64,000 bases of DNA, from NCBI GenBank assembly GCA_040954595.2, contig CM082577.2:5630301-5694300 (forward strand), given 5' to 3'. Made by a program: the position numbers and the translations under genes. The DNA comes from Balanoglossus misakiensis. Lineage: Eukaryota > Animalia > Hemichordata. Below the pieces are notes generated by a model. It saw nothing but the letters and a program-made list of their open reading frames with translations. It was not told the origin of the DNA and searched no databases. Shown here piece after piece: positions 23,801 to 59,900 of this stretch. Numbering within the stretch: the stretch's first letter is position 1; every line of letters begins with the position of its first letter.

Positions 23801-26800
23801 AGGCTCTGCGAGTCAAAGCGACATCAGGAAATCGAGAGTGACTCCCTTCGAACACAGCTTTGTAACGTGTAATATTCCATAATTGCTCTTTCCGTGACGA
23901 GTGTCTATCAATATGCTTCCGTCCAATTTAACAACATGATCTTGATATGACAAGTGCGCGCGGCATATTTGAGAACCTTTACCTTACCAGAAAAATGTAG
24001 GCAGGATTTTTCAATATCAGTGGTCAGCTTATCAGCATTAAAGGGAGAATCATTTCACTTCTGTGGTGGATGGAGTTTTTTTTAGAGAAAAAACAATCGT
24101 TGGCAGATGGTGCAGATGAAATAAGCACTATGGACAGGCTCAGTCTATATAAACCAGAACCAATTCCGGACCGCGGTTACACACAACTTCCATCTCGTTT
24201 GTAGGATATGAGAGTAAAATCTCTCCAAAATGAATAAACGGTAGGGACCAATTATTCATTTCGGCAAGTTTTATTACAGAATGTCTGCAAAACTCACGCA
24301 AGACGCAAAACCACAAAATTGAAATGGATATGTGCTGGCGGCCAGCAATTTAACCAGGAAACTTTTAGTGTTCTCTCTATTTACTGGATATGGATTCAAC
24401 TGGACATATTTGCAACTAGATTTCCTTCAGGGTGAGCACAATTAATCAGACCTCGAAATGGAAAATGCTTTACGCCGCACGACTTTGCACAGTCATTTGC
24501 GAGATTTCAACCAGAATGGCGTTTTTTTTGAAAGCCAATCGAGAAAAACAAAGTTTTCATTTGTTATAGAAAGCTTTTACTCATTACACCAATACCTTAT
24601 CTAGGTCATTTATAGCAGAAAATGGGTCTTTCAGAATACTCGTTCAAACCTATTTAGCAGACATTGTTATGTTATTATCTTCTCTTTTAAACGTTCTTTT
24701 ACGACAGAAGGCTATAATTGCCACGTGGTTTAGCAGGGTAAATGCAAAGAAAATAGTAAAAGAGAAAGCGTAAAGCTGTTTTGTGTTATTTAACGCGTCA
24801 CCTTGTTGCCATAGTGACGCGTACGTCACGTAATGTTTTTCCCGGGAAAGAATGAATTTCTTTTCGTGTTCACAACCACATGTAAGTGATTTCTCTGTGT
24901 TAAGTTTCGGCTGACTTTATCCACCTAATAAATGCACTTCAAACACACTATGAAATTTGACTCGCAAGGGATAGGTATCTGTCAGGTTTCATAGTCTGCC
25001 GGTGTAAGCTTATTTCTTGGAGATCAAATGTTTTTTCACCGACTTTCCAATTGATCATAAGCCTCATGACGAGAACTGTGCATATTTTGACCGCCGAACG
25101 GGTCGGAACTTTAACGTGAAGTGTACGTTTATAATTATTTAACAGACGACCTGGCGGCTGATATAATTCCGCTGCGATATTTGACATGTTGTCGACGACG
25201 CGACCAAAGTGGGAAGATCATCAAGTCCCCGACAATTCCCCCAGCAACATTGTTTGAGCTTACTCACTCACTCCAAGTTACAAAACACTGATTAGCTAAG
25301 ATGAGATATGACGAAAATTAGATACATCAGAAACGGCGAGTGTGCACCGTAAACGCTGATCAAAGCTTATTGTTGTTTGAATCATTGAGTGGATGGTGCA
25401 AAGCGAAATAGACGGCTATTTTGCTTGCGCTGGCCTCGCGTCATCTGTAAAACAGCAATGTAAAAAAGAACTAAATGTAAAGTGGAAAAGGAAACGAGAT
25501 AACGAGGCCGAGGGCGAATTTGTGCGATTGGACTTGGAGCAGTACAAAAACTAAATTGCAAATAACATGGTGGAATTTTTGAAGGAGAATATCTAATAAG
25601 CTGCTACTAAAACTGACGCCAAATCAAACAGAAAGATACCTGTCTAACTGATCACATTATCCGTCATAGCAGACATTCTGAGACGACAGGCCAAATAAGA
25701 AGACTCCCTGATAAGTAGGTTCATTTTAATCAAAAAATGAAAAACGCGTAAATTCGCCATCATGCTACTTGCAACTTATTTTACCCAAGCACCGCGATGA
25801 CAAATGTTGAATTATGTTGTACATGTATCATGGTACCATCCCCCATTCTGGTTGGGCGAGAGCTCAACCCAGCAGCGATGTTAAAATACAAATACATGTA
25901 TTGCACTGCTGACTTTTTGACACGCCGTTTCGTTAAGAAAATGACACTGATACGCCACGAGATATCATGTATACCCGCCTGCGGCGGGCTTATTGCTTAA
26001 ATTTATCATAATGTAAAAGTTAATAAGGGATAAACTGGTAATCCATGTAAATGTTAATACCGTATCGGTATATGAGTGAGATGTGATCACAGTTCGCGCA
26101 CAAAACACCGGGGAGGAGGGGGGCCAGCAGCATTTTAAAAGACACACGTGGGACTTTTTCTAACCAGTAATATGTACACTGCAAGCAATAATGTCTCCAA
26201 AAAGCAATTAAGATCTTTATGAGTGCATTTGTACAATTTAATTGTTATCGCAAGCGCACGTGTCCTGTATACATGTAGGTTGTCTTGTCTGGGGCGGGTT
26301 CTGGATTAGATATATTCCATCTGTTCGTCCATCATCGGGAATCAGGATGCACTATTCTGACATGTCTAAATGTTTTCAATCTTGCCACTAGGGCTAATGA
26401 GTTTGTATATGTTTATACATCTATAACTCTATACCTCCATGTCCTTGCTGCAGGTATCGTGCATAGACACTTACATCTTTTCACCCAGCGGGGACTATGG
26501 CATTGACATTGACACTGACTTGTATCGTAATCCTTCCTTTTAATATCTCATTTCTTTATATTTCGGGAATGCACCGTGAGCGGCCAAGAACACCTGGATA
26601 TGCCTGAGCTGTTCACACAGCACGATGTCTAACACTTACACCTTACACGTTACAATAAACCGTTCATTACTTTTACTGACCTCGTGAATGTTTTATTGTT
26701 TTTGATGCTTGCTAATGGCGACCGTTGTATCGCCTGGCTCCATGTGCATTTACCTAATATTCTCAAGGGGAATTTCACTAATCTAAAATTTCATGACCCT

Positions 26801-31920: not shown

Positions 31921-32912
31921 CGTTCGCGCGGCTCAGCGGCCCGACCACAAGTCCTCGGCGGGATGGATCATCATTGGACCGCGAACCAGAAAGAACAAAT
32001 ACGTGTACAGTTTGGTGAATGAGGTTACAGTTACGATGCAGGCATCACACGCATTGCTTCCGCCAGCCTGGGGGTACGCGCGTACAATGAGGGCGTCGCG
32101 GATTTGTCGCTCCGTCCCCCGCCCCGGCGGAGTACAGACTGAAAATCCGCGTCTTCTATTTTCATTTTCGTGACAGTTGGCACATGGCTCGGTCAAACGA
32201 AATTAGATTCAGTGGACAAATTAAATGGTAATGTCACCTTGCTTGATTTGGGTTCATGAATGCATTTGCCCATAGAGAAAAAAAATTGACGTAGTGTTTT
32301 TCCTTCCAATTATCGGATATATTTCTGAACTTACATGTCATAACCGAGCACAATGACCATTCGTTTTATTAAGGAATTTAATAACACTTACATAGGAGAA
32401 TAAAAAAAATCGTAATTTACAGAAATGACCTTACTTTCAACATTACCGACCAGACACAATACCAATTTTGATAACCGACGCCAAGGAGAAAAAAATCATG
32501 ATTAAAAGAAATGACATTGCTTTCAAATTGGCTGATCGCACATCACTTAAAAATTAAAATTCCCGTTGGGCAATATTAAATACAGGTTTTGACAATGAGA
32601 ACACCTACACGAGAGAATAAAAAAAGTCGTAATTAACAAAGAAGAATGAAAAAACAGTAATTAAACGAGATGACATTACTTTCAACTGTACCGATTGTAC
32701 CTTCCTAAAATATGGAAGCGCTCGTTGGACACCATCGCCAACAATATATAGGCTAGTCTCCTCCGCCAGCGAAATTCCAAGAATGCGCATGTGCGGGATG
32801 GAATGCAACCGATGCCTCTTTGGATGCGAGGAGACACACTGTCAGTTGTGAGTGCGAATGAGCAACTGCGAATGTGTATCCGCCCGTTCGCCTGTACGTA
32901 ACGCCGCGTAAC

Positions 32913-34232
32913 ATGGATTGTGAGCAGTACGCGGTAAGTCAAGTAACTGATTATCATACATTTGCAGGGAAGGACGCCAAACTGCCGAACTGCAGCGATG
33001 TCGGGGAAATCAACGGAACCGGCTCGGACTATTTCAACGACGACTTGCTGCGTAATTTACTGCGCCAGTCGCTCTTCACCCACAAGTCACCGTCGACCAT
33101 CGTGCTCATCGCTCTCTACGTCATGTCGTTCATCACCGGCGTGGTGGGCAACGTGCTGGTCATTGTCGTCTGGTTCAAAAACAAGCACATACAGACCATC
33201 ATCAATTTCTTCCTGGTCAACCTGGCCGTGTGCGACTTGATGGTGATCTTGTTCTGCATGCCCATAACTTTGGGCAACGTCATTTACAGCGAGTGGATAT
33301 ACGGCGAAGTTTTGTGCAAGTTGACGCCGTGCATACAAGGCATGTCGGTGTCCGCCAGCGTTTTTATACTGACCGCCGTCAGCCTGAATCGCTTCTACGC
33401 CATCCACAAGCCGTTGAGAGCGAGGGTGTTGTACACCCGTCCCCGGGTGCGCAACTTCATCATCGTCGTTTGGATTATTTCGCTGATCCTGATGACTCCC
33501 ATACTGGTCGTGAACCGGCTGGAGATGATCACCAACGCGGACCTGGAAGTCGTCTCCCTCGCCGGTTGCACGGAGAACTGGAACCCCATCGAGCTGAAGC
33601 ACGCCTACAACGTGTTCCTCTTCCTCGTGCAGTTCGCCGTGCCCATGGCCATCATGTTCGTGGCGTACGCGATGATAGTGAAGGCTCTGGTGGCCGGCAA
33701 GTCGGCGCTGGGGAAGGACTGCAACCCGGACAAGCAGGTGGCGGCGCAGGACAGGAACCGCAGCAAGGTTGTTCGCCTGCTGATGGTGGTCGTCGTCCTC
33801 TTCGCCGTGTCCTGGTTTCCCTACCACGTGGCCACCATCTGGTTCGACTACAAGTCCAAGCAGGCCAGCGGGGAGTTCAGCGTCATGGTCTACCCCTTTC
33901 TGCAGTGGCTGGGGCTGTGCAACTCGTCGCTGAACCCGATCTGCTACTGCTTTCTGAGCAAGACCTACCGGAGGACGTTCAAGGCCACACTGCAGTGCAG
34001 GTGGGACAGGATGAAGAGTGTGAAAAACGGCATCGAGGGAGGACATTTCGGCCACAGCGTGGGACTCGGCAGCTCCAAACGCAAGTTTCGCGCCGGAACT
34101 CAAACCGGCTCGTGCAAAATGGAGAGGACAAGTTCGCGGTCGAGAAAGGCGGGCAGCAATGGAACTTTCACGTCAAAAACATCGAACGCCCAACCGAACA
34201 AGGAAGTTGTCTTCCTGGAGACAACGCTATAA
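32913..34232 (+). CDS. Class A (rhodopsin-like) neuropeptide GPCR, NPFF/SIFamide/orexin/QRFP receptor-like; single coding exon, about 439 aa from ATG 32913
   Basis: Seven hydrophobic segments with GN (TM1 GVVGN), NLAVCD (TM2), W-x-YGEVLCK (ECL1/TM3), IQGMSVSASVF...SLNRF (TM3), SWFP (TM6) and NSSLNPICY (TM7). N-terminal N-glycosylation sequons NCS and NGT, and an ECL2 Cys (GCTENW). The ORF-track start at 32874 is GTG; the first in-frame ATG is 32913. Confidence 0.95.
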   Translation: MDCEQYAVSQVTDYHTFAGKDAKLPNCSDVGEINGTGSDYFNDDLLRNLLRQSLFTHKSPSTIVLIALYVMSFITGVVGNVLVIVVWFKNKHIQTIINFFLVNLAVCDLMVILFCMPITLGNVIYSEWIYGEVLCKLTPCIQGMSVSASVFILTAVSLNRFYAIHKPLRARVLYTRPRVRNFIIVVWIISLILMTPILVVNRLEMITNADLEVVSLAGCTENWNPIELKHAYNVFLFLVQFAVPMAIMFVAYAMIVKALVAGKSALGKDCNPDKQVAAQDRNRSKVVRLLMVVVVLFAVSWFPYHVATIWFDYKSKQASGEFSVMVYPFLQWLGLCNSSLNPICYCFLSKTYRRTFKATLQCRWDRMKSVKNGIEGGHFGHSVGLGSSKRKFRAGTQTGSCKMERTSSRSRKAGSNGTFTSKTSNAQPNKEVVFLETTL

Positions 34233-39666: not shown

Positions 39667-41890
39667 CCAATAGCTGGAGAAACCAACCCTCGCTTAATAC
39701 AGTTATACAAACGCGTGACCATAGTGACCCAATTGTCCCTCTCATTTGGAGTTTTATGTGTTTGCGTCCAAGCCACGTTGTAAATTTGCTTGATTCGTTT
39801 TTTTTTATCATTAAACAGCTTGGAGATTCAGTGTGAACAATGAATAAATCATCACAGTGCAGCAGCTGGATATCATAAAAAAAGATAAAACTAATGTTAA
39901 TGTTTTGAAGCGCCACCATTCGAATCTCCAAAGACAGCGGGCTCTCTGTGAGCACAGAAATTGTCGGTTGTGTGCTGCACGCGCTTGTTAGTAGAAAAAT
40001 CAGGCATTAGGCACATGATGTGTAACTTCACAAACCTTGACATTTTCCAACAACGAAATACCATAGTTCTTCGCGTGTATTTACGGATTGACCCCTGACC
40101 CGCACTCACTCACTTTATACACGCAGACCCAACCCGCCAAATAGAACGCCGTTGACCCTTGACCTCTTGAAATATGATAAGTTTTCAGTTAGTTTCCTAA
40201 CACCCGAAACGTTGCTTACTTTTAAATTTCATTCGAAGTGTTTTAGCATTTTAGAAGAAATCATGGGGTTGGGACCTTTTGACTACTTCAGTGCAGTGAG
40301 ACACTTTTTTGAGTCACGCCCAATGAGGGTTGACGTGTTTTAAAATAATAAAGCAAGCACAGACGGCATTAAAAAAATATCGACATCCAGATAACAGTGA
40401 AGTTTGTAGCTTTGCATGCCAATTCAACACTAATAACTACTATAATTTAGTTGCTCTTCATATCAGGCGCCGATATTTGTTTACTAACGAAATCTAAATT
40501 GATAGTGTACAATGTAGCGTTATTAAAAAACATGTGATACACCGTGTGAAAATTGCATAAAGCATACACGAGTGACAGACATGGAAAAGATAACATTTAT
40601 GAGACATGCATGGCCTGAGCAACGTCAGGTTAAAACATAGACCCTGGAGAGAGGGGTATCCAGGGTCCATGGTTAAAAACTTAATATCGGGATGCCAGTA
40701 CCGTGCCCTACCTGTATTTCTACCCTTAACACTTGACAGTATGGCCAATAGCGTTGTCTCATACTGCAGTGTTGTCCTCTGATTTTATCCAGCCAAAATC
40801 GATCTGTTTCCCCGACACTTTGTTGGCACGTGCAATGAGGGTACTTGAGACGGGCAGACCAGTGGTAAATCTGTCATGACTGGCCTCATATCTGGTATCT
40901 TATTGCCTATGGTGTGCTGGCAGCCTGAGTTACCCACGTGTGGGATCGACAGCACTTGTTCTCGGCACACTTTGTGCACGTGGCACGTTAACCAGCGAGC
41001 GAGCGAGCGGCAAAAGTTCCTCATATCAAATATGGTGCCGATTAAAAAGACATATTCATGTCAGACACACATACACCCCCCCCCCCAACATGACCTACAC
41101 CTTTGCCTTTGGAGTTTTCGAGATGTTCTCGCGGCGTGGGCAAATGTAGGCCTACTATACACGATTTGGCGACCAAATGCCCGTGAATGAAGAGAAAGGA
41201 GGACATTTACCAACAGAAGAGTGCTTAACCGTTGCTATGGTTGGTCAGACATTATTCAGAAATGTTCATTGATACGAATCAGTATGGCCCAATTAGACTC
41301 CCTCCCGTTCCCAGAGGCTGACAGTTCGGACGGCAATGATTGCACGCGAATTGCCTTAGGTCTCGTGAGTTTTTGGTGATAATTTAACGAATCCATGTGA
41401 CGCGTTTCCCACAGCCAACCACATATATATGGGTAAGTGAGCGACATGGAATTATTCAAACCAGCACCGATCAGTACACACCACAGGTAGGTCTTGCGAC
41501 TTGCTAGTCACAAGCATCGCAATTTCCTCTCGACCAATCCCGCTCTGCTCTCTTCCACCATATTCGGCGATTCGTTTGTCCCGGCACTGCAGAATCTATC
41601 GACAACTCCGCCAATTTATACCCACGTTGTGCACCTCGAGAGCATAATCGAATACCAGTACACCAGGAGTGTCTTGGGTAGCAGCCTGACATGTGTATTT
41701 CTCAAGCGCTGTTGCATCTTGGTGTTTGAGCGAACGTCGACGATAGTTCTGACATTTTATTTTTCTCTCCGAGGAAAAGGGCGTAGAAGCAGCTAGGCCC
41801 GCGACCTGTGGTTTGTCATCACTTGAATACTGGTAATAACTCTGTCGTCACTTTTCTCTCCCCCCCCCCCCCATACAGCAGCAAGGCACC

Positions 41891-44800
41891 ATGCGTCTCT
41901 TCATCCTCTCCGTTCTCGTAGCAGTGGCTGCATCGCAGTACACAGGACCACTCCCGTGGGGTCTGGATCGTATTGACCAGCAGAAGTTGCCTCTTAATAA
42001 CGAATACAACCCATACGGTAAGCCATGTCCCCATTCCCGATTCTTTGACCGCTACCTTCGACAGAGAAAGAACAGTTCAACCACAGACTTGTAGGTCTGT
42101 CCAGTTACAAAGCGCGAGTTTCCGACGCCATGGCCTCCGTCGGATATCTACATTATACTTAGCTTCAAGTCACCAAGTCCAGATCAACCTCTATTAGATT
42201 AGTTTCATTTTTAATGAAACTAATCTAATATTATCTTGCGCAAAATTGTGAGAAAGGGTTTTAGACTTGGTTTTTTTAGACTTCGTCAAGGCGCGCACCT
42301 TTTCTATCAGCACCGTGGAAGAAGTTGTATTCTGAATAACGTCAAAACTTTTAGAACCTCGGCACAGTCGGAGAGAAAATATTGAAATGGGATAAGTATA
42401 TTTTCACACGACAGATTTGAGATCGGTAATCTGGGATTTTTTTTTTCCATTTTTTTCCTTTGGAACCCTATAAAGCCCAATCTTTCTGAAAAGATGAGGG
42501 TCTCTGTCCTTCTCCATGTCCGCTATTCTGTCATACATAGTACTGAATTTTGAAAATATGAAAAATCATGGCAAAAAAAAATCAGAATAGAGAGTGTGAG
42601 AGGCCTGTGGTCGTTGTCTTGGAGCAGTGAACCGGAAAACCAACATTATCCTTCGCAGGTGCCACCAATGGAGATCAGTCCATCGTTTACTGCATGGCAA
42701 CCGGAATTGAAAGGACCCACGAGAACTTCGGACCAGCTTTCAACAGAGTCGAATTGATTTACGACTTCGAGGGATCAGATGTACGTGAGCTGTATTAATT
42801 TATTAGTTCCCCGATCCTTTTACATGTAAACTGATATACCCAAATTCACCACATGTCGCAGAACAGGTGACGGTCACGGATTGCGTGTTTCTGATAGCCC
42901 AGCACCCACAATTTCGTTTTGTTTTGTTTTGGTAGCGCTAGTTTCAGCCACAAAATGATCCTGAAACAAAGATACAGAAACGCTGTTCCGATAAATATGC
43001 TTGTCAAAAGAAGTGTCGGTTGGCCGGGAAAACATTTTTGTAGCCTTGGCTAGCATGAATTCTTTAACCCTTTTCGCCTTTCACAGGGTACTGACACAAA
43101 TGGTGCTGGTACCGCTTTCGCTGGTATCATAGGTGGCCTGTACACAGGTGTTGCTCAACAAGCTACTCTTGGCATCGTCAGGATTAACTCAGTTCCCGAC
43201 CCCTTGGTTCTGGACTCCACCAAAGTCATCGAAGGTAAGCGACTCACAATTTTGTACAATATGCCATATCATACACGCACTTGACCCTGGGTATGGCAAA
43301 TTGGCCCCATCAGTGGTCTGTGGAACTGTTGCCGAACGGTGGCATTGGCAAACAAGTACACGTACCTCTGTTCTCAATCATTGCGTGTCACCCTTGTCCT
43401 AGACTCCCTCACAGCCCAAGGTTCGCTACAAGGCTCTTCACTGATGCGCCCTCAACTGTTTAGCAAAGGAGAAGCCCCATATGGTGTTGTGCCTCTCGCC
43501 GGGCACACATGCAATCAGTCCATCATCCTGCATGGACGACGAGAGGGGCTGTGAGAGAGTCTACCCTTGTCCGTGCCAGGCCAGTAATTTATCAACTTAT
43601 CCGAAAACAATGTTCATTTTAGAGAAATGAAATTCGGAGGTTTGACAGAGAAAGAAAGAAACGACATTCGAGGCACTTGCTTACAAAACGCTCCCGCGCG
43701 CCGCGTATTTGTGTTTCGCCTGAAGGTATGACCGCCATCCTTGATCACTACAAGAGCTTGAAAGCCGTCAACCCGACCGGCCATCTTCGCGGAATTGCCG
43801 TTGGCGCTCCATCTGTCCCAGAAACCGCCACCAACCTGGCTCAGATCGAAGAGTTGATGAGAGACATGGTCAGAGAGGGCATCACTGTCATCGGACCTGT
43901 TGGAGACGACGTGAACGCTGGAGCAGCTGACTGCGAGACACTGTCGCCAGCAAGACTCCATTACGAACCCGGTGTAAGTACATTGTATATTGTAACACAC
44001 CATGCAGCGAACCCTCGATTGTGATTCGTCAATATGCCGTCACGTGACCTTAGTCATTTCGAACTGTTCCCTAGGGCATCATTTCGATCAGTTTCTGCCC
44101 GGTACTGTTGCCCCGTCTTGATATAATTCCATGTTTGGTGTGTTACAAAACACATGGTGACTGACATATTCGGGCAACAGTGTATTTTTGACGACCTCGG
44201 GACTGCCAGTCACACCAAAACAGTCTGTTTTCCCTCGGGCTATGCCCTCGGGAAAACAAGACTGTTTTAGTTGTGACTAGCAGCGCCCACGGACATCAAA
44301 ATACACTGTTGCCCTCATTGTCAGTCATTATGTGTATACTGTCAGCAACCTCGAACAAAACAACGTGTCTCAGTCCAAGCAAACGCGTTTTGCGAGATCT
44401 CGCGAGACTTGGGTAATTAATTACCGCAACAACCGGTTGCCAGCCAAGTAATACAAGTCGAGCTTTGTATGTGAAACTAGAATAGGACGATTATGGTGTT
44501 TTAGTTTGAAGTCTGCAGCAGCTTACTGAATATGATCTAGGACCAAACGTTTCATTCAGTACAGGTATGATTGTACTGCACAGTACTGTGATTGTCTTCA
44601 TTTGTTTCCTTTGATAGATGATCATTGCCGGTGGTTTGACAGACAACGACTACCGTCATCCCAATTCCGTCGTTGGTGGCGCCGTCCACTGTGCACATAT
44701 CTATGCTCCCGACCACGAAATCGTATCCTCTGTCACCGCCAACTCTTACCAAATAATCCCAACAGAAACCGCGTTTGCTGCTGCCCACATTGGAGGTAAC

Positions 44801-45579
44801 CAGTGTGTTTTTACTTCTAATGCATTCCCATTGTCGTGATCACAAACCCTCTTTTTGCGGCATCTACTTCATCTACTTTATTGAGAAGATACGGCAAAAT
44901 ACATGTACACATGATGAGCAATGGTAGACCAGAGGGGCTTCAAGCCATACTAAGCATGTCCTATACGCAATTTCTTGATTATTTTTAATTGATCGCAGGT
45001 GCTGCAGCTAGGCTGAGAACAACATGCCCTAATCTGACAGAGAAGCAGGTCAAGGATTTCTTGATTGCCGGATCCAGAGTGCACGGTAACCCTGCCTTGG
45101 ACTTGGACGGTACACCCATCCCCGACAGATACATTCTCCGCGTCCCGTAAGTAGTGCTGTACAAATAGAAATCTTGTCAAGGTCCAGAGTGTGTAAGAAA
45201 TGGGTATTATAGGTCTCTGTCACCTGCGAATCCGATCATAGACTGCTGTCGAGTGTGTGCTGTAGAAATCCCCTCAGTAAACATGGATAAGTGGGGTGCC
45301 TCCCCCACTATCACCCAACTCCAAAACAGGGTGACCTCTCCCATCAATCCACCACCCCGGGCCGAAGAAACTGACCACTCCCTAAGGTGATGTGAATTGC
45401 CCTTGTATAGTATGTGACTGTTTCAGATTGTATATAACTACAGAAGGATTCGAACCAGCATCATCTGGTGCTTTCAAAGGGGTTTATTCATACGGATTTA
45501 ATATTCACACAACGATTTTCCTCTGTTCTTTTTCAGATACGCCACTGACCCTGCTGGTGACTGTATCCTTCCCGCATAA
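41891..45579 (+). CDS. Secreted subtilase (peptidase S8, proteinase K/aqualysin-like) homolog, catalytically inactive and lacking a propeptide; 7 exons, 337 aa
   Basis: Exons 41891-42017, 42659-42780, 43087-43234, 43726-43973, 44618-44795, 44999-45146 and 45537-45579 have GT-AG introns in consistent phase (1,0,1,0,1,2) and total 1014 nt. The protein has signal peptide MRLFILSVLVAVAAS, then PWGLDRIDQ..LPL, VYCMATGI..TH..FG, DTNGAGT..AG.IGG..TGVA..A.L..VR, GITVIGPVGD, DC..SPAR, C..IYAP..I.S, ETAFAAAHIGGAAA and P.LT..QV. These are colinear with the mature aqualysin/proteinase K domain. AATAAA at 45647-45652. Confidence 0.92.
42192..42230. repeat. Perfect 18-bp-arm palindrome in intron 1 of the subtilase gene
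   Basis: TATTAGATTAGTTTCATT-TTT-AATGAAACTAATCTAATA. Confidence 0.92.
44150..44335. mobile_element. Fold-back MITE-like element (about 186 bp imperfect palindrome) in intron 4 of the subtilase gene
   Basis: Arms ACACATGGTGACTGACA..GGGCAACAGTGTATTTT..AGTCACA..AAAACAGTCT and AGACTGTTTT..TGTGACT..AAAATACACTGTTGCCC..TGTCAGTCATTATGTGT surround a CCCTCGGG-ctatg-CCCTCGGG centre. Confidence 0.8.
45180..45500 (-). mobile_element. Possible tRNA-derived SINE in intron 6 of the subtilase gene
   Basis: Minus strand has GCTGGTTCGAATCC (strong B-box/T-loop) near 45446-45459. Extent is estimated. Confidence 0.35.
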
Positions 45580-48076: not shown

Positions 48077-49668
48077 ATGAAATCATACGAGATCGCCTAC
48101 TTTTCCAGAAATGTCATTCTAGCTATCATTGTGGTCGTCGCGGAAACGGCATTGGCGTTTGCAAATGACGGTGGAAGTGCTCATCCTCTAGGTAAGCAAA
48201 CTTCACTGGACACCCCAAAACGCACCGATTTTTTCATTGACCGATCTGAATCATTGGTGCGTGGTGAATATGGTCTCACAGAAAAAATCTCAAATTAATC
48301 TCATTTTTATTTATATATATTTTTTTATATCGATGACTGATTCACGCCAAAGCAAAGGGGAAATAACACATTTTGACACATTAGCTGGCATCTATCCAGT
48401 TTAAAGGGGCAATGTCGACCTTTGACCTTATTTCGGTTGCTTCTATGGCACCTGACTGAAACATGCTCATTATGACAGTGTTACATGCCAAACTCGCACC
48501 CTGTACATGGACGTAACACTTGGCCACTTTCACCTTTTAATTTCTGATCGGTAAAAAAAGTGTGTCGCAGTATATTATTCACAATGTATGTTTTGTCCAT
48601 ATACATTGTATAGAGTTGCGTTGTGGCAACTCGTGATTTGAGCACAATTTACCGAGAAGAATGACATCATAAATCCCACTGTCAACAGAACTGAAATAAT
48701 CATCATAATGTCAAAAGTGAACGACCTTTCCCCTTTAAGGAGTCGATATCCGAACTGCGACTGCGACAGAATGCAGCTGCAGATTTGGAAATACCCATTG
48801 TTCGCGTCAAAACTGTCAGGGTATTGTTATTGGAAAGTACCGCAAATTCCGCAGTATGCCAAGATCGTTGGCGCACGCGCAGGAGCTGCAGCTGTCAGTC
48901 CCTGTTTTACCGCACCAATATCGAGGTTCCGCCGCCCCTGTTTATAGGCCGTGATTGTTAAGTGATTATCTGGAATCAAACGCGCATTTTACAGAATGCA
49001 CGATAAACAGGGGCATCTTATCCTCACAATAACAACGATCACGTATTTTCGTTCTCCTCTTAGCGTTTCCAAACCAAACAGAGACCAGCCAGATTATCGA
49101 AACGAAAGGTATGCAAATCTTCTATATCAGGATGTACTTTTTTAAATATTCAACGTTCGGGATCAGCTGAAATGTTTTGACAAGATTCCCATTTTCAAGT
49201 ATATGCTGTCACGCACTGACTATTGTCTTGTGGGTGTTCAAATACATCAATGACTGAGTAAGTTGTTAAATATGTTCAAATGAAACAGAAAGTTTCACCA
49301 GGTGATGGGAGCCGGCATAGGACATGTGCATTGTGCCGTTCCCAAGCTTACGTCACACTATTGTGAACACGGCATAAATGAATAAATATTCTGCACTATT
49401 TTCCATCGTTTCTTGCACACACGATTGTTACTCCAGAACTTCCACCGTATAACTCTTCCCTCCTCCAATTTCAGACCCAGTCGTCTTTTCCTGGGAACTA
49501 GCATTGCTTTTGGTTCTTGGCGCCGTGGCAGTTTTGGTCTGCCAGATGCTGATCGTCATTTTCTGCGTCCGCTGCGAGAAGCCGAAGCACATCCAACTGG
49601 CGGAAGGATCGGTGGTCGGCGACGTAGAGAAAGTGAAAATGGGTGACGCGCCCCCAGCTGCAGTGTAA
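48077..49668 (+). CDS. Small type I single-pass membrane protein A (117 aa), uncharacterised; exons 48077-48191, 49064-49108, 49475-49668
   Basis: Phase-1 GT-AG introns give MKSYEIAYFSRNVILAIIVVVAETALAFANDGGSAHPL-A-FPNQTETSQIIETK-D-PVVFSWELALLLVLGAVAVLVCQMLIVIFCVRCEKPKHIQLAEGSVVGDVEKVKMGDAPPAAV*. It has a signal peptide, an NQT sequon, a TM helix and a short tail. The model is supported by exon-for-exon similarity to paralog B. Confidence 0.85.
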
Positions 49669-51696
49669 GCATTTGCGAATGTTTCCATCGCCTTCGTCCG
49701 CCACATGAGACAAACAACAACAACAACAACAAACACATCCAACTGAATTCGAAGGTAAAGGAAGCGTGGGTGTGAATCTCGTGAAACTGAAATTGGCGAT
49801 ATTGTGATGTACCCGATGATGACGGTATAAAACACTTTCAGCCCGGGCGTCAGTCAGTTTGTAGTGGTCCTCAGTAATGACAGTATGCAACTGATTTTTT
49901 ATCTTCATTCTATGGTGACCTTCAATCTTTAAGCCCTTTCATTTTCATTTCCATACTAGAAGTACGCACACTGTTCACTCTATTTCTCAGAACACTTACC
50001 GTACCGTCGCCGGCCATTCGGGCGTCTTCGACCGCCTTCGTACGCCTGGGACACAGAGAATGGACTTTCGTCGACGGTACAAAAACTGCTATCTGAAATA
50101 GTAACAAGAACACGACTCAGCAGTTATAATAACCGAGTCTTTTGGCCGTTGTTTCGCGTATATTCAGAACAGGATGACTTCATATTCACCTTGGCTGTGA
50201 AAAAAAATGAAGTTAGGTCCCCTAAGGCTCCAGCGACTACTTATGGACTAGGATTAATGTACACAGATTATTATTGACAAACATATTTTATTGCCTTCAC
50301 AAAATAATATTTACATTATTATATATTCAATACATTTTAATAGGGTATGGGTATAGGAGAAGGACTGTGTATACTACTCGAGTCGCTATACTGGCGGAAA
50401 TGTGTGTAATGTCGTACGGTGCATGCTATCGGTTTACTTTATACTAGTACCCGTACAGAATTCGTCATATCAATCGAAGCCTGTTTCATCGAGATGACCT
50501 GAGCCGAACTGAGTACGTGGGCGAACATTTCATATTATAATAATTTTGCGCGAGACAAATACATTGCAGATTCCGTGCAAAAAAATCGCACTAAGAACGT
50601 GGACGAACATATTTAATCATGAACTGAAAATCCATACAAATCAAGCTGACACGTCATTTTGGATAACTGCTTTCCACGTTCAGCGTTTCTAGCCTCTTCG
50701 TGCAGTGTGGTTAGTCGGTAAAGCCTCGTGTGCGCCGGGGAAATTTGACAATCTGTCCCGAAAGCTTTGACCAGCCACTCAAAAAGGCTTTTCCGTGTAC
50801 ATGTACACTGAAAGTACTGTAACATTGCGCGACTTAGGGTCCGTATAATCACTTGACTTGCGTGACTCATCATGGCATGTGTGGCCTGTGGTGGCAGGAT
50901 TTAAGATAACAATGACGACATGATTGACATGATTTCTCGCTCTATTTACAGTGCAATGAGTGGAAGGGAAAGTCAACCCTGGGTAAAATATTGAGTGTAA
51001 ATACCAGGGATCGGCAACCCGTTGACATGAATGTGTGTTCATTATGACACAGAGAATGTCTGTGATCGTGAATATAACATAATTTTCATGTGCGTTCATA
51101 TCACATATCTTACTCAGTGTTAGTAGTACTATTTCCCGTCTGAATTTTCATATACATACAATGTATATTTGTTAGGTCATTCTTTTTTATGTATGGTAAA
51201 GTGTATAACCTCGATTATATAAGTAAGACTATATAAGACTTCAATAAACTCTATTATATATATGTGACATCATCAGTATATGTGTATGATTTGATCATGC
51301 GCACTTGTACATACAATGGATCCAGGGTTTGTTGTTCCGCTCAGTTGAGTACAAGTACTAGTTTACCAATACGTCTCACTTTCGCAAACACCACTCGTTT
51401 TTCGAAGTCTTGTTTGTCATGGTTTGGACATTAACTAGCATGCTGTGTATGCATGATGTCATTTCCACGATTATTGTTTAACAAAGCAGGGAGGGAAACA
51501 GACTTGGTGATCCCCACTTTCCATAAATATTATCCAATGAACGTAAACGAGATAATCCGACAGTCTCATGATCACCGAACGCCTTGATCGTAAAAACCAC
51601 ACGGAGAGTGGCTGTGACCTAGATTTAATCATGAAGGCAACGTGTGGCAGAAGCATAGTTAATTAATTATGTGACGGTGTTTTCCCGACACTTTGC

Positions 51697-51865: not shown

Positions 51866-52787
51866 ATGGCCCTATGCGAGATACCTTTCGCCAGCTGGTT
51901 TTCAAGAACCATCATTCTATCCCTCTTTGTCATATTGGAAACGACACTGGCGCTGGCAAAATCTTATGATGGAGACGCACAGTTTCCAGGTAAGAAAGTT
52001 TTACACGCAACAGCGAGAGGGTGCGGGCGGATTAATCATCTCGGGGTCTGTTTTTTTTGCGTCAAAATAGAGTTTAGCAGAACGCATTTTTGACAATTCT
52101 GTTGCGGAGATCCTAAGTCTTTTGCGAATTGCAACTGCGTCACAACACAGATGGGGAAAGACCCGTGCTGTTTGCGTCACACACCGAAGATCGGGGAATA
52201 CCCCCATACAATATGTTACCATGGTGCCGGGAAGTACACCTGTGCGCACGCGCATTCAGGATTCACTATATTATAGCCTCGCGACGTAATTTAGGATAGT
52301 CTCGTGCAAATAAAAAATGTCAACATACTTAACGGACGCCAAAAAGAATGTATTATGCTTAAAATACCACTTTTTCTTCTTCTTCCTCCATCTCTTCCAG
52401 AATCGAGAGCATACAACCAAACCGAACCTGGTCAGACTGCCGAAGCGAAAGGTACAGTATTAGTTAAATGTACAGCTCTTGTTATTTTCGTTATTTCGAA
52501 TCGATTAATATCCCTCAAACGTTTGTTCATTGCATGCTTCAGACAATTTAGAGTGAAACTCTTCTCATCTTCAATTTTCAGGCTTCGACATCTTTCCGTG
52601 GAGATTCGCTATACTGTTGATATTTGGTGCTGGAGCGGTTTTGATATGCATGCTCCTGGTCTTTGCCTGCTGTGTCCGCCGCGAGAAGCCAAAGCACATC
52701 CAGCTGGATTCGTTGGCGAAAGAAACGGTGCTCATCAGCGACGTAGAGAAAGTGAAAGTTGGTGAGGCGCCCCCAACGACAGTATAA
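51866..52787 (+). CDS. Small type I single-pass membrane protein B (126 aa), paralog of A; exons 51866-51989, 52401-52451, 52582-52787
   Basis: Phase-1 GT-AG introns give MALCEIPFASWFSRTIILSLFVILETTLALAKSYDGDAQFP-E-SRAYNQTEPGQTAEAK-G-FDIFPWRFAILLIFGAGAVLICMLLVFACCVRREKPKHIQLDSLAKETVLISDVEKVKVGEAPPTTV*. It shares NQTE, EKPKHIQL and DVEKVK.G.APP with A. Confidence 0.85.
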
Positions 52788-55700
52788 ACACCACGATTGT
52801 CCGTCTCCTGAGCGAAATGACGACAGTCAGAATTGAGACCAATTGAGACCGTCGACACAGAAAGGGTGCGTGGGTGGTCAAGGAGCTTGCGAAAGTGAAT
52901 GTTGACGCGCCCCCAACGGCAGCTTTGAGGGGAGTCTGTGCAACTGAATCTTATTTCCCACTCCTACGCCTTCAGCCGTTATATATTGGTACTAACTTTT
53001 TAATACATTTTACAAATAATCACTTTTATTATATAAATACCCATTATGAGTGTGCACAATTTTATCATAGAAAATATATAAAGAAGATATATAGTATGGA
53101 ACATAAATAACCTCTCTTTGATGTGCGATGACGTCACACAAAATTTCGGCGTTTAAATGTACATTTTAGATCATTGACACTTGTACGAGTTATTATAGTT
53201 CATGAAAACTGTTAATATACTGCCGAGGAACATGTGTTCGTTGTAGAACGAAAATTATTTGCATGACAATGGACGTGAAAAGTTAACGAAGTGTACCAAA
53301 TGGAGTGGACTCTAGTTGAAGACGCTGCGGGAGCGACCTCAACGTGCGAAGGTGGTTATTATAGCCGGCTTTTGTTTTATTTTTTTGTGTCCGTGTTTCG
53401 GGAATCTTGGCCGTGTAAGCCCACATGTACCATTTACCTCAATTAAAGGCCTGATTTGCGAACACGTTGCATGTAAAACTGTACCCCCCCCCCGCCACCT
53501 GAGAAAACACCTAGAAGTTGGTTCACTTGACTTAGCTCACCACCGGTCCAGTGAACAAAGTGCCGCATTGCATGAATTATTAAAGCGGGCCATCCGAAAG
53601 GGATTATTATACTGTTTGTAAAAGTAACAGTTACTTCCTGAGGAGGTTTCCGGTGGCTTACTGGTATTCGATGAAACAAAGCAACCTGTTGCTTTTAGTA
53701 TGGTTTACATGGTTCACGAAGAGTCACAATAATGATACAGTTATAAACTTCTTTTAAAAATGACCCTGTATATTTTGTTTTTATTTCTTGACCAAAATCC
53801 ACGTCCACTTTGTGGACTGGCTAGATTTGGGACTACCTCTAGCGTTCATTTTTGCTTCGATTGCTCAGTCGGCGCTGCGCGTAATGATATGCGCCTATTC
53901 ACGAGTCCTTCAAGAAAGAGGGACTGTGGCTTATACGTATATGCACAGGGCTGACTCCGAGCTCACGAGCGACTGTGTTGTGGAGGTACGTTGTGCAAAG
54001 TAGACACTGGTCAGCAGTGCTTTTTTTAAACTCTGTGACTGTGCCGACAAAACTGTTTCTTGAGACAAAGTTATCCGACAATCACACTGCTACTATGATC
54101 CGGCGTATCTGAAATTATTTCGCAATATGTATTTCGTGCATATCGACCTAGATTTCAATATACCCGAGAATACAGATGGAAGAGCAAAAGTACGTGTAAT
54201 AAAAATAAGATCTGAATAGTGAATATGTTCAAGAGGAGATACTGGTGGAAAAATGTTAAAAATTCAGCGAGGGGGAGTTGAAATTCCACGCTATAGTATG
54301 AAGAAAAAAAACTAACCGCCCACAATTAAGCGATATTAGCCAACTCATGACGTCATATAATATAACTGTGTTACAGGAATTTTTTTTACAATACCACCCA
54401 CTCGCATTTTTTTTAATTTGGCATTTTGTAGTTGTTCGGTGAGCACATAGGCCTAACGCCCCTGGCGTTGAGTATTTGCCGGCCATGCCAGAGTAAACCC
54501 GTTCAGTTTCATATTTGACTGTTGAGTTGGCTTCGGCTTGTGACGTAACCGGATCATGCGCAGTCGTACCCTGGGGCCCTGGGTTTTATTTACAGTTGGT
54601 GCGCTGGCATCAAATGATCATGAAGCTAGTCATGCACGTCGGGGTATTTTTGCGGCTAGCAAATTTCCTCTAAATATGCGACGGTTTAGAAAATTGTTTC
54701 TGGGTCGGTACGACGGTAGTAATGGTGGCGCGCAGCTAGGCTAAAAGAGGAAAATAAATAAAAACGGTGTTGGAGGAATGTCAAACTTCTTTGTGATTTT
54801 TATTTAGGAAAACATCATTTATTTTGTAAATTTTGGTTTTCGACTAGACTGAGGTCTATACTCGGAAAACGCGCATGAACAGCACACACTGCGCTCTTCT
54901 GACTGTTACCATGGAATAGTCATGGAACACTTAGAGTGGACAAATTTCAAGTAGACACTTTCCAATGGTGGTGCCAAGGTATGTCGGCTCCCCAAGCCCT
55001 ACATCCCCGAGGAAGTGAACGTGACGTCATGCTTTTGTCTTTTGAATGCTGTGCATGTGACGTATGGCACACTCAACAATCTACCACACATTCTGGGTCA
55101 ATTCTTGGTCAAAATGTGGTCAGTTGAACTTATCAGTCTTCACTATCGTGTATGCATCTTCTGAAACATAGCTTAGGAAGCGTGTGCAGTGGTACACATG
55201 TATTTTCAATGGACGATTCAGGACCGTGTCTATGCATATAACTTGCACTATATTTAGGCCAACCCCGGGAGGCCTGTTGTTCGCGATGTAGGAACTTTTC
55301 CGAAAGAATGGCGCAGTGTTTTTGCCCATCATTCAGCACCGTGTCTGTGACTTACATCCCGGAACTTTGTTTGAACAAATGAAATATTAAACTTCCACGG
55401 TCATTTCCTTTCCATTTCCATACTGCATAGGCCTATACAGCGTCGCTACAAAATGCCAATTATTTAAGTAACCGCGGTCTTCATCGGGCCGGGTGACACG
55501 ATAATTCTGACTTGCATTTTCCTTCATTGCCATCGGCCTCAATCAATCAATTAATTAATGACGTCAACTCAATAGTTAAACTAACATCTTTGTCTCCTTC
55601 AAATCGCTGTAGTAAACTGGGGTGGGTATACACCGTATAAGTACTACATTGTACTCGTAGTACCAGAGGAAGGCGGCGGAACTTTCTGTAAAAGTGTAAA

Positions 55701-56931
55701 GTAACCCGCATTATTTACATTGTGTCAAACCCGCCGTGTGTTTACACATCTTTTCAGGATGAGGTTAAACTGGCGATAAGAAAATAGACCATGGAATAGC
55801 ATACCGCTTTAACATGTTAACAGGGTGCACGACTTGCAATGTTACTAAACTCAGAAAAAAACACCTGTTGCTTTCGGGATGGAAACGATAAAGATTTTCA
55901 CTTGAGTAAAGAAATACCAAACAATGACGCCCCCAGTTGGCCAAGGCAAGTCGAACAGTGCGTCGACTGCAGTTGCCGTCGGCCGGTGAACTTTAAATGA
56001 CATTTCGACGGTTTTCCGCGTAAATTCTAAAGAACTGGTTAGGTACACGACACATAGTGTAAACATGGCTAGAAGAGAAGTCCACAAAGAGAGGTAGGAA
56101 CCATGAAATTTGTCACTGTTGCTTTTTTCACCACGGTGCGGCGACGAAGCCGGAAGTGTATGTACAGTACAGTCGAGAGCGCCCTGAATTACCTGGTCAT
56201 GAATATTAATACCACTGTTGCTATGGTATCAAAACATAAATACCTGTTTACGCTAATCCCGTTAAATATTATGACGATGATGTGACGACAGTAGGGTGAC
56301 CTGGAATTTCACTGTTCCAGTCTGAAATTTGTGGGATGGAGACCCCGCCCACTGAGAGTGTGAGACATTGACTATAAGTCCGATCACGCAGTCAAGCTGG
56401 GAAATTGGAGTACTAAAATGCAAGAACCCCTTACTTTATATCATCTAAACTTCACAACCGATATTTTAACAAGCAGGCCTGCAAAATACCCGATTTTTAG
56501 TTTGGGTCCCCTCTGACACAGACAGGTAAGTAGCTGTGAGCTTGTGTAGGTGTTATATGACACCCCCTGTTGCATAGTGGTACAGTCCTGATAATCAGAA
56601 CCTCCTCACAAAACACTTTAGGCCAATCAGGTGACATCATATCTGACATCGATTTTTCTGCTGTGTTGTATGCAAAGACAGTTATATTATTGTTAGACAT
56701 TTGCCTAGCTTTTCAGTAATCCTCAAGCCTGGCATCACACGTGCAGCAATTGTGTGTACCCTGCACATATTGCGTAAATTCAAATCCAGTCCTGGTTAAA
56801 TCAGTTCAGTCCATGATTTTATTGCTCCATTGTGTTGGGAACTCACTACAGGACAAGACTTTCATATATGTTTTTAACCCTTTTTAAAGTCAGCACGCAA
56901 AATAACCTGAGTGTAGTGAGAACTGGAAGAG

Positions 56932-59900
56932 ATGGCTTCAGGTTTACTTGTACGTTGCATTGTAGGTGCTGCACTGTCGGCGATGGCCCTGCCCGTCGCG
57001 AGCCAGACCGCCAGTTTGCAGCTCAGCGTCACGTGTGCCCCGGGCAGCTTTCTGGACAGACACGGACAGTGTGAGCTTTGCACGGAATGCGTGCATCTCG
57101 CAGACTGCCACCACTGCCGGTTGCAAGACCCGGAGGCCAGTGAGGCCGGGACTTTTCCAGACTGCCCCGAGGGGTTCTTTCCCGACTCCTCCGGTGGCTG
57201 TACCGATTGCCTGCTGTGTGAGCTGAACCCGGGAGTACCAGGATGTCGACGATGTGGTAAGTGCACGTGATTGTTTTTTCCTGCTTCCACTTTTTCTGAC
57301 TGATATGCGTAAATCATTGAAAGAGCCGACGTGTCTCGCACTTAATTACAGCAACAGCAGAATTTCAATTCACAAAATGCACGAAGAAAGAATCAGGGAA
57401 GTCTGGGAAGTGAAAAGAAATGCAAAAAAAGCAAAAGTTAGCACCAGATTTGAAACTATTGAAATAATCTAAAATTATAGAATTATTAAAATTGTGTGTA
57501 AATTTAATATTGAAGTCAACAGTTGCTCATTTCTCTTTGAGACTCTTTGAGGCACCTGTTGCAAAACAGTAAGTATTTTAATTTATTGTGTCTGCAAGCT
57601 TGCAAAAGAAAACATAAAAGCAGCAATTACTGAAGGAAACTTCTTGCTACTCTGTTTTATTTTTTACGGTTTTTGATTTTTTAATAATTTTCAAGTTGAA
57701 TAATTGTCTAAAGTTTTTGTTAGCATCAGCAACTTGTCAAAGAGAGATGGAAACACACTAGTCCTTTTCTACAGTGAGCAAAGGATCCAGTACTCACTGA
57801 GGTGTAAATTGTAAAAATGGAATACCTGTGAATTTAGCGTGAAGGATCTCTACAACTTTTAAGTGGTCCAATTGGTGCCCCCTTTTGTGGCTGTTATTTT
57901 ATTGTCAACGTTACCTGTTACAACAAAGTCAAGTGGGCCACTTCAACAATGTGAGCATCAATTAGAATGGTATATTTGACATTTTTCTCAGTATTGAGGG
58001 GAAGACAATGAATGATATTATCTAAGTTTTTCGCTCCTACACAAACGTGGTTAAGCTGTTATAACAACCAGTTCACGTGTTTCTTTTTACGCGGGTGGCC
58101 CACGCCAAAAATCATAATGCCCAAGTTTTATTTCTTCTTCGGCAAAATGCCCCCTTTGTTTCAGACGGCATTCTGTCAGCAAAGGCCTGAATCATGTCTG
58201 GTATGGAGAGAATGTCGGCTAATCTAATTTGCATAATTAACACAATTGGAAGGGGTTGCCGCAGGTGTTGACTTACAGGGAGGAGGAACGAACTACAAAA
58301 GTCGCCGGCGGTTTGGAACAAACGTACCGGCTTTGTTTAGTGTTAATCTCCTGTTAAATACGTTTGATGGTAATGAGGGATGCTTATTGTGATGGCCCTG
58401 GGAAACCTCTTTTTTTGTTTTCTGTTCCGTGCCTGTCACTTGTAGGTCCACATTGTGTCGGGCCTACTGGTAAGCTTTAACGCATCATTGTACCGGAGAA
58501 AGGTGCGTTTTGTCCCATTTTCAAGTTCCGATCCCCAGCCCCCTCCCCCCCCCCCCCCACACACACACAACTATGAACTAAAGCCCTCCTTTTTCAATCA
58601 GCGCTGAAGTCACTGTTGTTTGTAAATCAGATTTATTTTCGTACTCGCAAAAGCAGAGGCGGTTTGAAAGATAGCCGCATTTGCGAACCTAATCTATGGC
58701 CCACGTGAGTCCCACTCTTGAAATAAGTGCATACTGTTATTTTTTCATCATTGCATGTTTACAAAATAAAAAAAGCATCCGAGGAATGTACCATGTTTTG
58801 TCAACTGGTGGATAAAAAAAATTGTGGGTCGAGCGTAAGATGTCGAGTCAGTACCACATCAAAAGAGTTTTTGATTCCGCGATAACGGCGGTATTTCCTG
58901 TCCCAGATTATAGTCGGTGGCTCAATCAGAAAGTTTCATTCTACAAACACAGGTGACTCAGATTAAGTACATTTACAAGGAAATGAACACAAGGCAGCTT
59001 CCTATTTCTATTTAGACTCATTTGTATGTCGTGGTGGTTTTTGAAGTTTTTTTTTTATTCGGGTTTAATGATTAATTCAGCTGGCGTGTCAGGTCAGTGG
59101 GGTTTACACAGGGTGATGGTGTCCTATTGTGCAGCCGATCACTTCAAGGTACCATTGCCAGTGAGAAAGACAAACAAGTGCAAGGTTTCACAAACATCAC
59201 GGATTAAAATAATCTGGGGCTGCATGAACCGGCAACACGACATGGGGAATCCCCGGGCCCCCCAGACGCGCGACAGAGTCTAGGTCTAATCGCTTTTAGT
59301 TCGTGCGGTAGACTCTGTACCCAGCGTGGCGCTGGCGGGTCCCCCCTAAGACTTCCTGAATGCCACGGTGTCGGGCAACACGAAATGTGAACGGAAGAAA
59401 CGATAAATACACGGATTACTGATAAAAATCTCCTTCACAGAAAGTGCCAGCTGGATTGAGTTTGATACATAATCTGCTGTTTTCTCTACCGAAAGTGTCA
59501 ACAGGTGTCGAGTGATGAGAATATGCCGAATGTTTGATCGCCGGAAAAAATAAAATTTGGGAGACAGTTGCACCGGAATCGGGTGCACTCAGCCAGCCCG
59601 AGGAATGCAGCCGGATAATTTGAACAACCGACAGCTGGAAAAATATTCGTGAATTTAAATACACTATGCCCCACTGCCATTTTTATTGCCAATGTCAGAT
59701 ATTTAGCCGACTGATGCAATGTATATATATATGTGGTAATGTCTATTGAACGCGTAGATCTGTATTTAAGTTGTCGTAGTGTATGTACACTACACACGTT
59801 CTTTTCTGATAAGACTCTGGTAAGATGTGATTAACTTTAAAGCACAGAGAAAAAAACATTTTGGCATTTTTGTTGTTGAATAGTGTTGAGATATTTGTTA

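Follow-up and report, generated by a model that had tools for sequence, protein, structure and literature searches.

The window, a stretch of 64 kb, carries on its plus strand a gene of seven coding exons joined by GT-AG introns, which encodes a protein of 337 residues in an intact reading frame. About 41 kb of the window lie upstream of the gene and about 18 kb downstream. Its parts are listed below, including a 5′ end read from the sequence, where a short non-coding exon probably precedes the first coding exon.

41424..41890, plus strand: putative 5′ end, with a TATA-like run near 41424
Ending at the donor 41487, plus strand: putative short non-coding exon
To 41878, plus strand: putative intron, followed by a 12-nt leader before the ATG
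41891..41935, plus strand: predicted signal peptide, residues 1-15, with a hydrophobic core and small residues at 13 and 15
41936..42017, plus strand: mature N-terminal segment from Gln16 onward with the W23 motif, in the same exon as the signal peptide
42659..42780, plus strand: coding exon 2, with Ala56 (42697-42699) at the position of the catalytic Asp
43087..43234, plus strand: coding exon 3, with Ala90 (43105-43107) at the position of the catalytic His
43726..43973, plus strand: coding exon 4, with Asp193 (43905-43907) at the position of the oxyanion Asn, and Cys202
43749-43793, plus strand: family-specific insert, about residues 141-155, within coding exon 4
44618..44795, plus strand: coding exon 5, with Ala267 (44771-44773) at the position of the nucleophile Ser, and Cys240
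44999..45146, plus strand: coding exon 6, with Cys284, specific to the propeptide-less group
45537..45579, plus strand: coding exon 7, with Cys333 and the stop
45647, plus strand: AATAAA, 3′ of coding exon 7

Intron 4 holds an inverted-repeat element of about 190 bp (44150-44335, about 80% self-complementary), possibly a small transposon. Elsewhere, the window contains a 72-bp near-palindrome (9482-9553) and, on the plus strand, an intronless open reading frame for a rhodopsin-family GPCR (32862-34229; Pfam 7tm_1, E 1e-56). Three further plus-strand features (49451-49671, 52557-52790 and 56920-57267) comprise two segments that are 70% identical and resemble exons for a transmembrane stretch plus tail, together with an exon for a signal and a cysteine-rich part, which matches TNFR weakly (E 0.027); they may represent tandem small TNFR-like genes. 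At fourfold sites, G occupies 6 of 145 positions in the window gene, as against 48 of 140 in the GPCR, a gap in codon usage that, measured against one GPCR, is too little to claim high expression of the window gene.

Within the exon spanning 41891-42017, MRLFILSVLVAVAAS runs into QYTGPLPWGLDRIDQ in a single frame and without an intron, and the 3′ end of the exon is a GT donor in phase 1. The original prediction that the signal peptide is fused directly to the mature N-terminus was thus borne out. The proposed equivalence to the start of mature aqualysin held as well, the motif aligning from residue 3 of mature aqualysin-1 (4DZT). The Trp of this motif is residue 23 in the window protein; among the 68 motif-bearing proteins from outside the acorn worms in our first homolog set, it lies at residues 93-186 in 66 cases and at residues 25 and 32 in the remaining two.

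Small residues at the -3 and -1 sites mark signal peptidase cleavage. Positions 13 and 15 are occupied by small residues in all seven homologs with a full start, and the hydropathy of the window protein, together with these conserved small residues, is compatible with a cleavable signal peptide. On these grounds and the -3/-1 rule, cleavage is predicted most likely after Ser15, and possibly after Ala14, and the place where an I9 propeptide would sit is between 41935 and 41936. Cyclisation of the N-terminal Gln to pyroglutamate, which had also been suggested, is plausible for Gln16 of the window gene but does not extend to the whole family, as both Saccoglossus proteins described below have Tyr in its place.

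Proteinase-K-like enzymes normally need their propeptide to fold, and we searched the window for a hidden one. Of the 3330 fragments given by six-frame translation of the window, none matched a first profile, for which the first homolog set supplied 67 propeptides (best E 3.7); spiked held-out controls were recovered by it at E<0.05 in 9 of 10 cases as whole propeptides and in 15 of 20 as halves. A second profile, based on 10 propeptides taken from the animal-type group, did not match the window fragments either (best E 1.2), recovering 5/5 whole and 8/10 half controls at the same threshold. A weak tblastn match to one propeptide at 25083-25166 (E 0.016, best of 10 queries) was discarded, as it lies on the minus strand, opposite to the gene, and has no Pfam match. 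Pfam Inhibitor_I9 matched none of the four acorn-worm models scanned (P0002, P0003, P0079 and P0080) and did match the starfish control P0090. Since Pfam I9 misses the propeptides of two dead acorn-worm proteins discussed below, P0086 and P0226, Pfam alone would misjudge such cases, and local profiles and PDB pro-forms were used in addition. In line with the deletion originally proposed, the propeptide profiles run on the 64-kb window and the Pfam scan of the four ortholog models found no I9-like sequence, and the I9 propeptide is missing from the window gene.

The absence could be only apparent if the gene model were incomplete and an I9 exon had escaped notice, or it could carry little meaning if the gene were a relic whose protein is not made. 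An AG after a pyrimidine-rich stretch just before Tyr17 could in principle serve as an acceptor. However, seven RefSeq models from two genera have the same start Met, the 41 kb upstream contain no I9 exon, and the seven exons remain in frame with conserved cysteines. We find this explanation barely credible.

All three positions of the D/H/S triad are Ala in the window protein and the oxyanion Asn is replaced by Asp, so the residues expected of an active S8A enzyme are not found. We regard the protein as a dead enzyme, for which, given the replaced triad, no proteolytic activity would be expected. Orthologs match PF00082 at 47-49 bits, above the cut-off of 21.8, and single exons of the window gene fall below it, coding exon 3 giving a weak Pfam S8 match (E 0.15). 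The best PDB sequence matches of the family are of the proteinase K type. An AlphaFold model, calculated with 113 sequences for the ortholog P0002 rather than for the window protein itself, reached a pLDDT of 91.6, and a Foldseek search with this model returned 1SH7 (E 4e-24), 2B6N and aqualysin 4DZT as best matches; with only 5 sequences, the pLDDT was 39. The P0002 model rests on 100+ active relatives and says nothing on folding kinetics or on the route to the fold. ESM Atlas returned generic S8 clusters only. By sequence and predicted fold, the window gene belongs to Peptidase S8A, proteinase K type, and its product ends about 20 residues past the subtilase core.

Homologs were found by starting from exon 4, which led to two Ptychodera flava proteins, one of which, used as a query, led to five P. 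flava models. These RefSeq models lie on a 41.5 Mb contig, where the copies form a tandem-like expansion, and are 65-69% identical to the window protein. All five share its signal-to-QY junction and its start Met; none of D, H and S is present in the four full-length models, nor D or H in the fragment. A HMMER search of 1.84 billion representatives yielded two proteins of Saccoglossus kowalevskii that are laid out alike and are likewise dead at the catalytic sites, as well as fragments from P. flava and Glandiceps talaboti. According to PMC4729200, the Saccoglossus and Ptychodera lineages diverged more than 370 My ago, and because the junction and the dead site are common to both, the propeptide-less dead subtilases are an old acorn-worm family. 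This kinship makes an acorn worm the most likely source of the window. A set of acorn-worm proteins named ‘aqualysin-like’ and ‘serine exoprotease-like’ in RefSeq is thereby flagged as pseudoenzymes, for which the papers searched describe no function.

The original prediction also held that the loss of catalysis and the loss of the propeptide are coupled. We compiled a table of 225 first domains and excluded two rows that lack the motif and nine probable fragments. In 15 domains, termed signal-fused, a signal-like peptide lies no more than 55 residues from the motif, and 14 of these are dead (eight from acorn worms and six metagenomic, two of the latter named Planctomycetota), an association that is biased by a query itself dead and propeptide-less and that represents about three to four lineages. 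The sole intact signal-fused domain is P0014. The 199 domains with a long N-terminus comprise 186 intact, 12 dead and one unscorable, that is, 12 dead among 198 scorable. A second set was collected from bacterial genomes with an intact-triad query of the P0014 type, with 80 loci kept of 404 and the triad read by hmmalign; all 80 complete domains have both triad and propeptide. Taken together, the two sets show that enzymes which have lost the propeptide are mostly dead.

The combination of a dead site and a missing propeptide is seen again in metagenomic proteins that fall outside the acorn-worm clade. These proteinase-K-type proteins (P0081, P0082, P0083, P0164, P0168 and P0199) are separate from the acorn-worm clade in trees, and some of them carry two to three tandem dead domains; two are named Planctomycetota. 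In the P0014 cluster (with P0243-P0245, four records), a domain with intact D/H/S/N follows directly on a signal-like peptide, making this a candidate active propeptide-free enzyme. None of the 80 genome loci retained out of 404 carries a gene of this type.

Two further acorn-worm proteins, P0086 from Glandiceps and P0226 from Ptychodera (51% identical in one comparison and 57% in another), represent a second family of dead subtilases in acorn worms, with triads S/G/V and A/G/H and Asp for the oxyanion Asn, and keep an I9-like propeptide of about 85 residues. Their propeptides score 30.8 and 28.5 bits, respectively, whereas 200 shuffled versions of each did not exceed 7.3. The alignment of P0226 with pro-proteinase K 8RSE begins at its residue 17, and that with full-length PCSK9 at residue 30; no furin-type site is evident at the propeptide junction of either protein. 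Furthermore, dead P0128 and P0139 retain Pfam I9, and C. difficile CspC works with an uncleaved prodomain (PMC6636752). Since P0086, P0226 and CspC are dead and keep the propeptide, loss of catalysis does not force its loss. What stands of the proposed coupling is the missing propeptide, the dead site and the joint occurrence of these traits (14/15 against 12/198); that a dead enzyme must shed its propeptide is not supported, in view of P0086, P0226, P0128, P0139 and CspC, and the four records of the P0014 cluster are propeptide-less with an intact triad. Arabidopsis SBT5.2(b) was considered as a precedent and rejected, as PMC5074803 describes a protein without signal peptide, with only five prodomain residues missing and with the triad kept.

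A strict form of the coupling would have the uncleavable propeptide block secretion once catalysis was lost, so that both losses occurred essentially together. This would agree with the 14 dead domains among 15 signal-fused ones and with inactive PCSK9, which is held in the ER or misfolds (PMC13276728). It is nevertheless difficult to reconcile with the eight dead domains in the coupling table that match a propeptide profile, plus P0226, with the conservation of the dead propeptide-bearing pair between Glandiceps and Ptychodera, and with the functional CspC (PMC6636752), and we consider it quite unlikely.

In a first tree (52 rows, LG+G4), calculated after removal of six columns at the catalytic site, a branch with support 99/95 set all 10 rows of dead acorn-worm proteins apart on one side, the propeptide-less group being supported at 100/99 and the propeptide-bearing dead pair at 100/100. 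Under a mixture model with 30 rows, the union of the dead acorn-worm groups reached only 73/89, and an AU test did not reject placement of the dead propeptide-bearing pair with the active animal-type enzymes (p 0.12); long-branch attraction possibly lies behind the grouping of the dead rows. In the same mixture-model tree, four metagenomic dead propeptide-less rows grouped with the dead propeptide-bearing P0139 (96/90). The dead acorn-worm groups share seven derived columns, compared with three or fewer in 496 control pairs, a control that is imperfect because the two members of the dead pair resemble one another closely. One of the seven columns is an insertion, absent from 32/32 active rows, and another (Asn to Asp) recurs in unrelated dead subtilases. 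The shared columns favour kinship of the propeptide-less group and the P0086/P0226 pair. We consider it probable that catalysis was lost first and the propeptide later, an order that the tree does not prove.

The reverse order would require a self-folding active enzyme that first lost its propeptide and whose catalysis decayed later, the dead propeptide-bearing paralogs representing a separate loss. An intact D/H/S/N domain behind a signal-like peptide, as in the four records of the P0014 cluster, is what such an intermediate might look like, and separate origins are not rejected by the AU test (p 0.12). The protein searches, however, returned no active propeptide-less acorn-worm sequence, P0014-type genes are absent among the 80 loci kept of 404, and the insertion and derived columns are common to the propeptide-less group and the dead propeptide-bearing pair. 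Loss of the propeptide before catalysis thus seems very unlikely.

We propose that an acorn-worm subtilase would first have lost catalysis with its propeptide kept, the state of P0086 and P0226, and that one branch would then have deleted the propeptide, which was no longer cleavable and no longer needed as an inhibitor. Compensation may have come from a conserved insert, some 10 residues long, in an extended helix, and from a new Cys284-Cys333 pair, which would tie down the C-terminal tail. In the model of P0002, the insert at 141-155 lengthens helix H126-146, which we take to be one of the helices where the propeptide docks. The Cys pair typical of active relatives is absent from the propeptide-less group.

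Folding without a propeptide is likely for the window protein. The Bacillus intracellular subtilisin ISP1 refolds in <5.6 ms without its pro-domain (PMC11419036), an example of a subtilase fold that does not depend on a propeptide. Unaided folding cannot be taken for granted, since the catalytic fragment of PCSK9, the animal relative that has been studied best, is secreted only with co-expressed prodomain, which can also act in trans (PMC13276728). An I9 chaperone might similarly reach the window protein in trans, as in engineered PCSK9, either from a free-standing I9 gene or from a propeptide of the P0086/P0226 type. Propeptide-bearing paralogs are present in the same animals, and PMC6993865 is reported to deal with a propeptide-like protein that is free-standing. 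On the other hand, the 64-kb window contains no I9-like sequence, and the gained conserved insert and Cys pair suggest self-stabilisation. We regard a supply in trans as unlikely and retain self-folding as the preferred reading.

As to function, we infer a secreted non-enzymatic binding or structural protein. The old active-site residues vary, being Ala or Gly, and Ser/Arg/Ile and Gly/Met/Gln in Saccoglossus. Other residues, among them N65, P68, Y102, T103, Y141, K145, N148, P149, Y259, C284 and R322, are fixed in 6/6 full-length propeptide-less rows and rare in 32 active rows. Free variation at the active-site positions, set against fixed family-specific residues in other places, makes it probable that the protein works through a surface other than the old active site.

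Altogether, we favour, with some reserve, the reading that the window gene encodes a dead, propeptide-less protein, likely secreted and likely self-folding, that likely serves as a non-enzymatic binding or structural protein across acorn worms. More tentatively, and with confidence somewhat short of even, we suggest that acorn worms hold a series consisting of an active enzyme, a dead one with propeptide and a dead one without, the last folding by itself and having kept a non-enzymatic role for more than 370 My, with the metagenomic repeats of the pattern being independent. Propeptide-assisted folding is classically illustrated by secreted subtilases. If true, the series would make it possible to test directly what alterations abolish the barrier to folding in these enzymes. 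The dead sister family that retains the propeptide, present in the same genomes, gives a convenient counterpart for studying how dependence on the chaperone is lost.

Our literature search on acorn-worm propeptide-less dead subtilases, which included RefSeq accessions and left subscription journals mostly outside its scope, found no description of them, and a term search of the main text of PMC11175523 found no mention of this subtilase family. The hemichordate genome paper gave 0 matches, in its main text and two supplements, for a listing of subtilases as a deuterostome novelty. Subtilase pseudoenzymes (CspC) and propeptide-independent subtilases (ISP1) are already known. The literature searched gave no precedent for a presumably secreted animal family that lacks both triad and propeptide, beside a dead propeptide-bearing sister family.

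The closest known relatives are members of the proteinase K subfamily (4DZT, 1SH7 and 2B6N), with which the window protein shares the predicted fold (TM about 0.87-0.89), 26-28% identity, a signal peptide (predicted in the window protein) and the N-terminal W-x-LDR-x-DQ motif. It differs from them in having no I9 propeptide, in the replacement of all of D/H/S/N, in inserts near 141-155 and 209-211 and in another set of cysteines. PCSK9 is likewise an animal proteinase-K-type subtilase of matching sequence and fold, whose action needs no catalysis (PMC13276728). However, the triad of PCSK9 is retained, and after a single self-cleavage the protein remains attached to its prodomain, without which it is not secreted; it also has a C-terminal Cys/His-rich domain; the window protein has neither triad nor prodomain, nor this domain. 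The C. difficile pseudoproteases CspC and CspA (PMC6636752) share the degenerate triad, the subtilase fold and a non-enzymatic role. CspC has a clamped uncleaved prodomain and a jelly-roll insert of about 130 residues, both missing from the window protein, and thus resembles the state of P0086 and P0226 rather than that of the window gene. Finally, ISP1 has in common with it the subtilase fold and shows quick folding without a chaperone prodomain (PMC11419036), but it is an active, intracellular enzyme of another subfamily that has kept an inhibitory pro-sequence of 17 residues.
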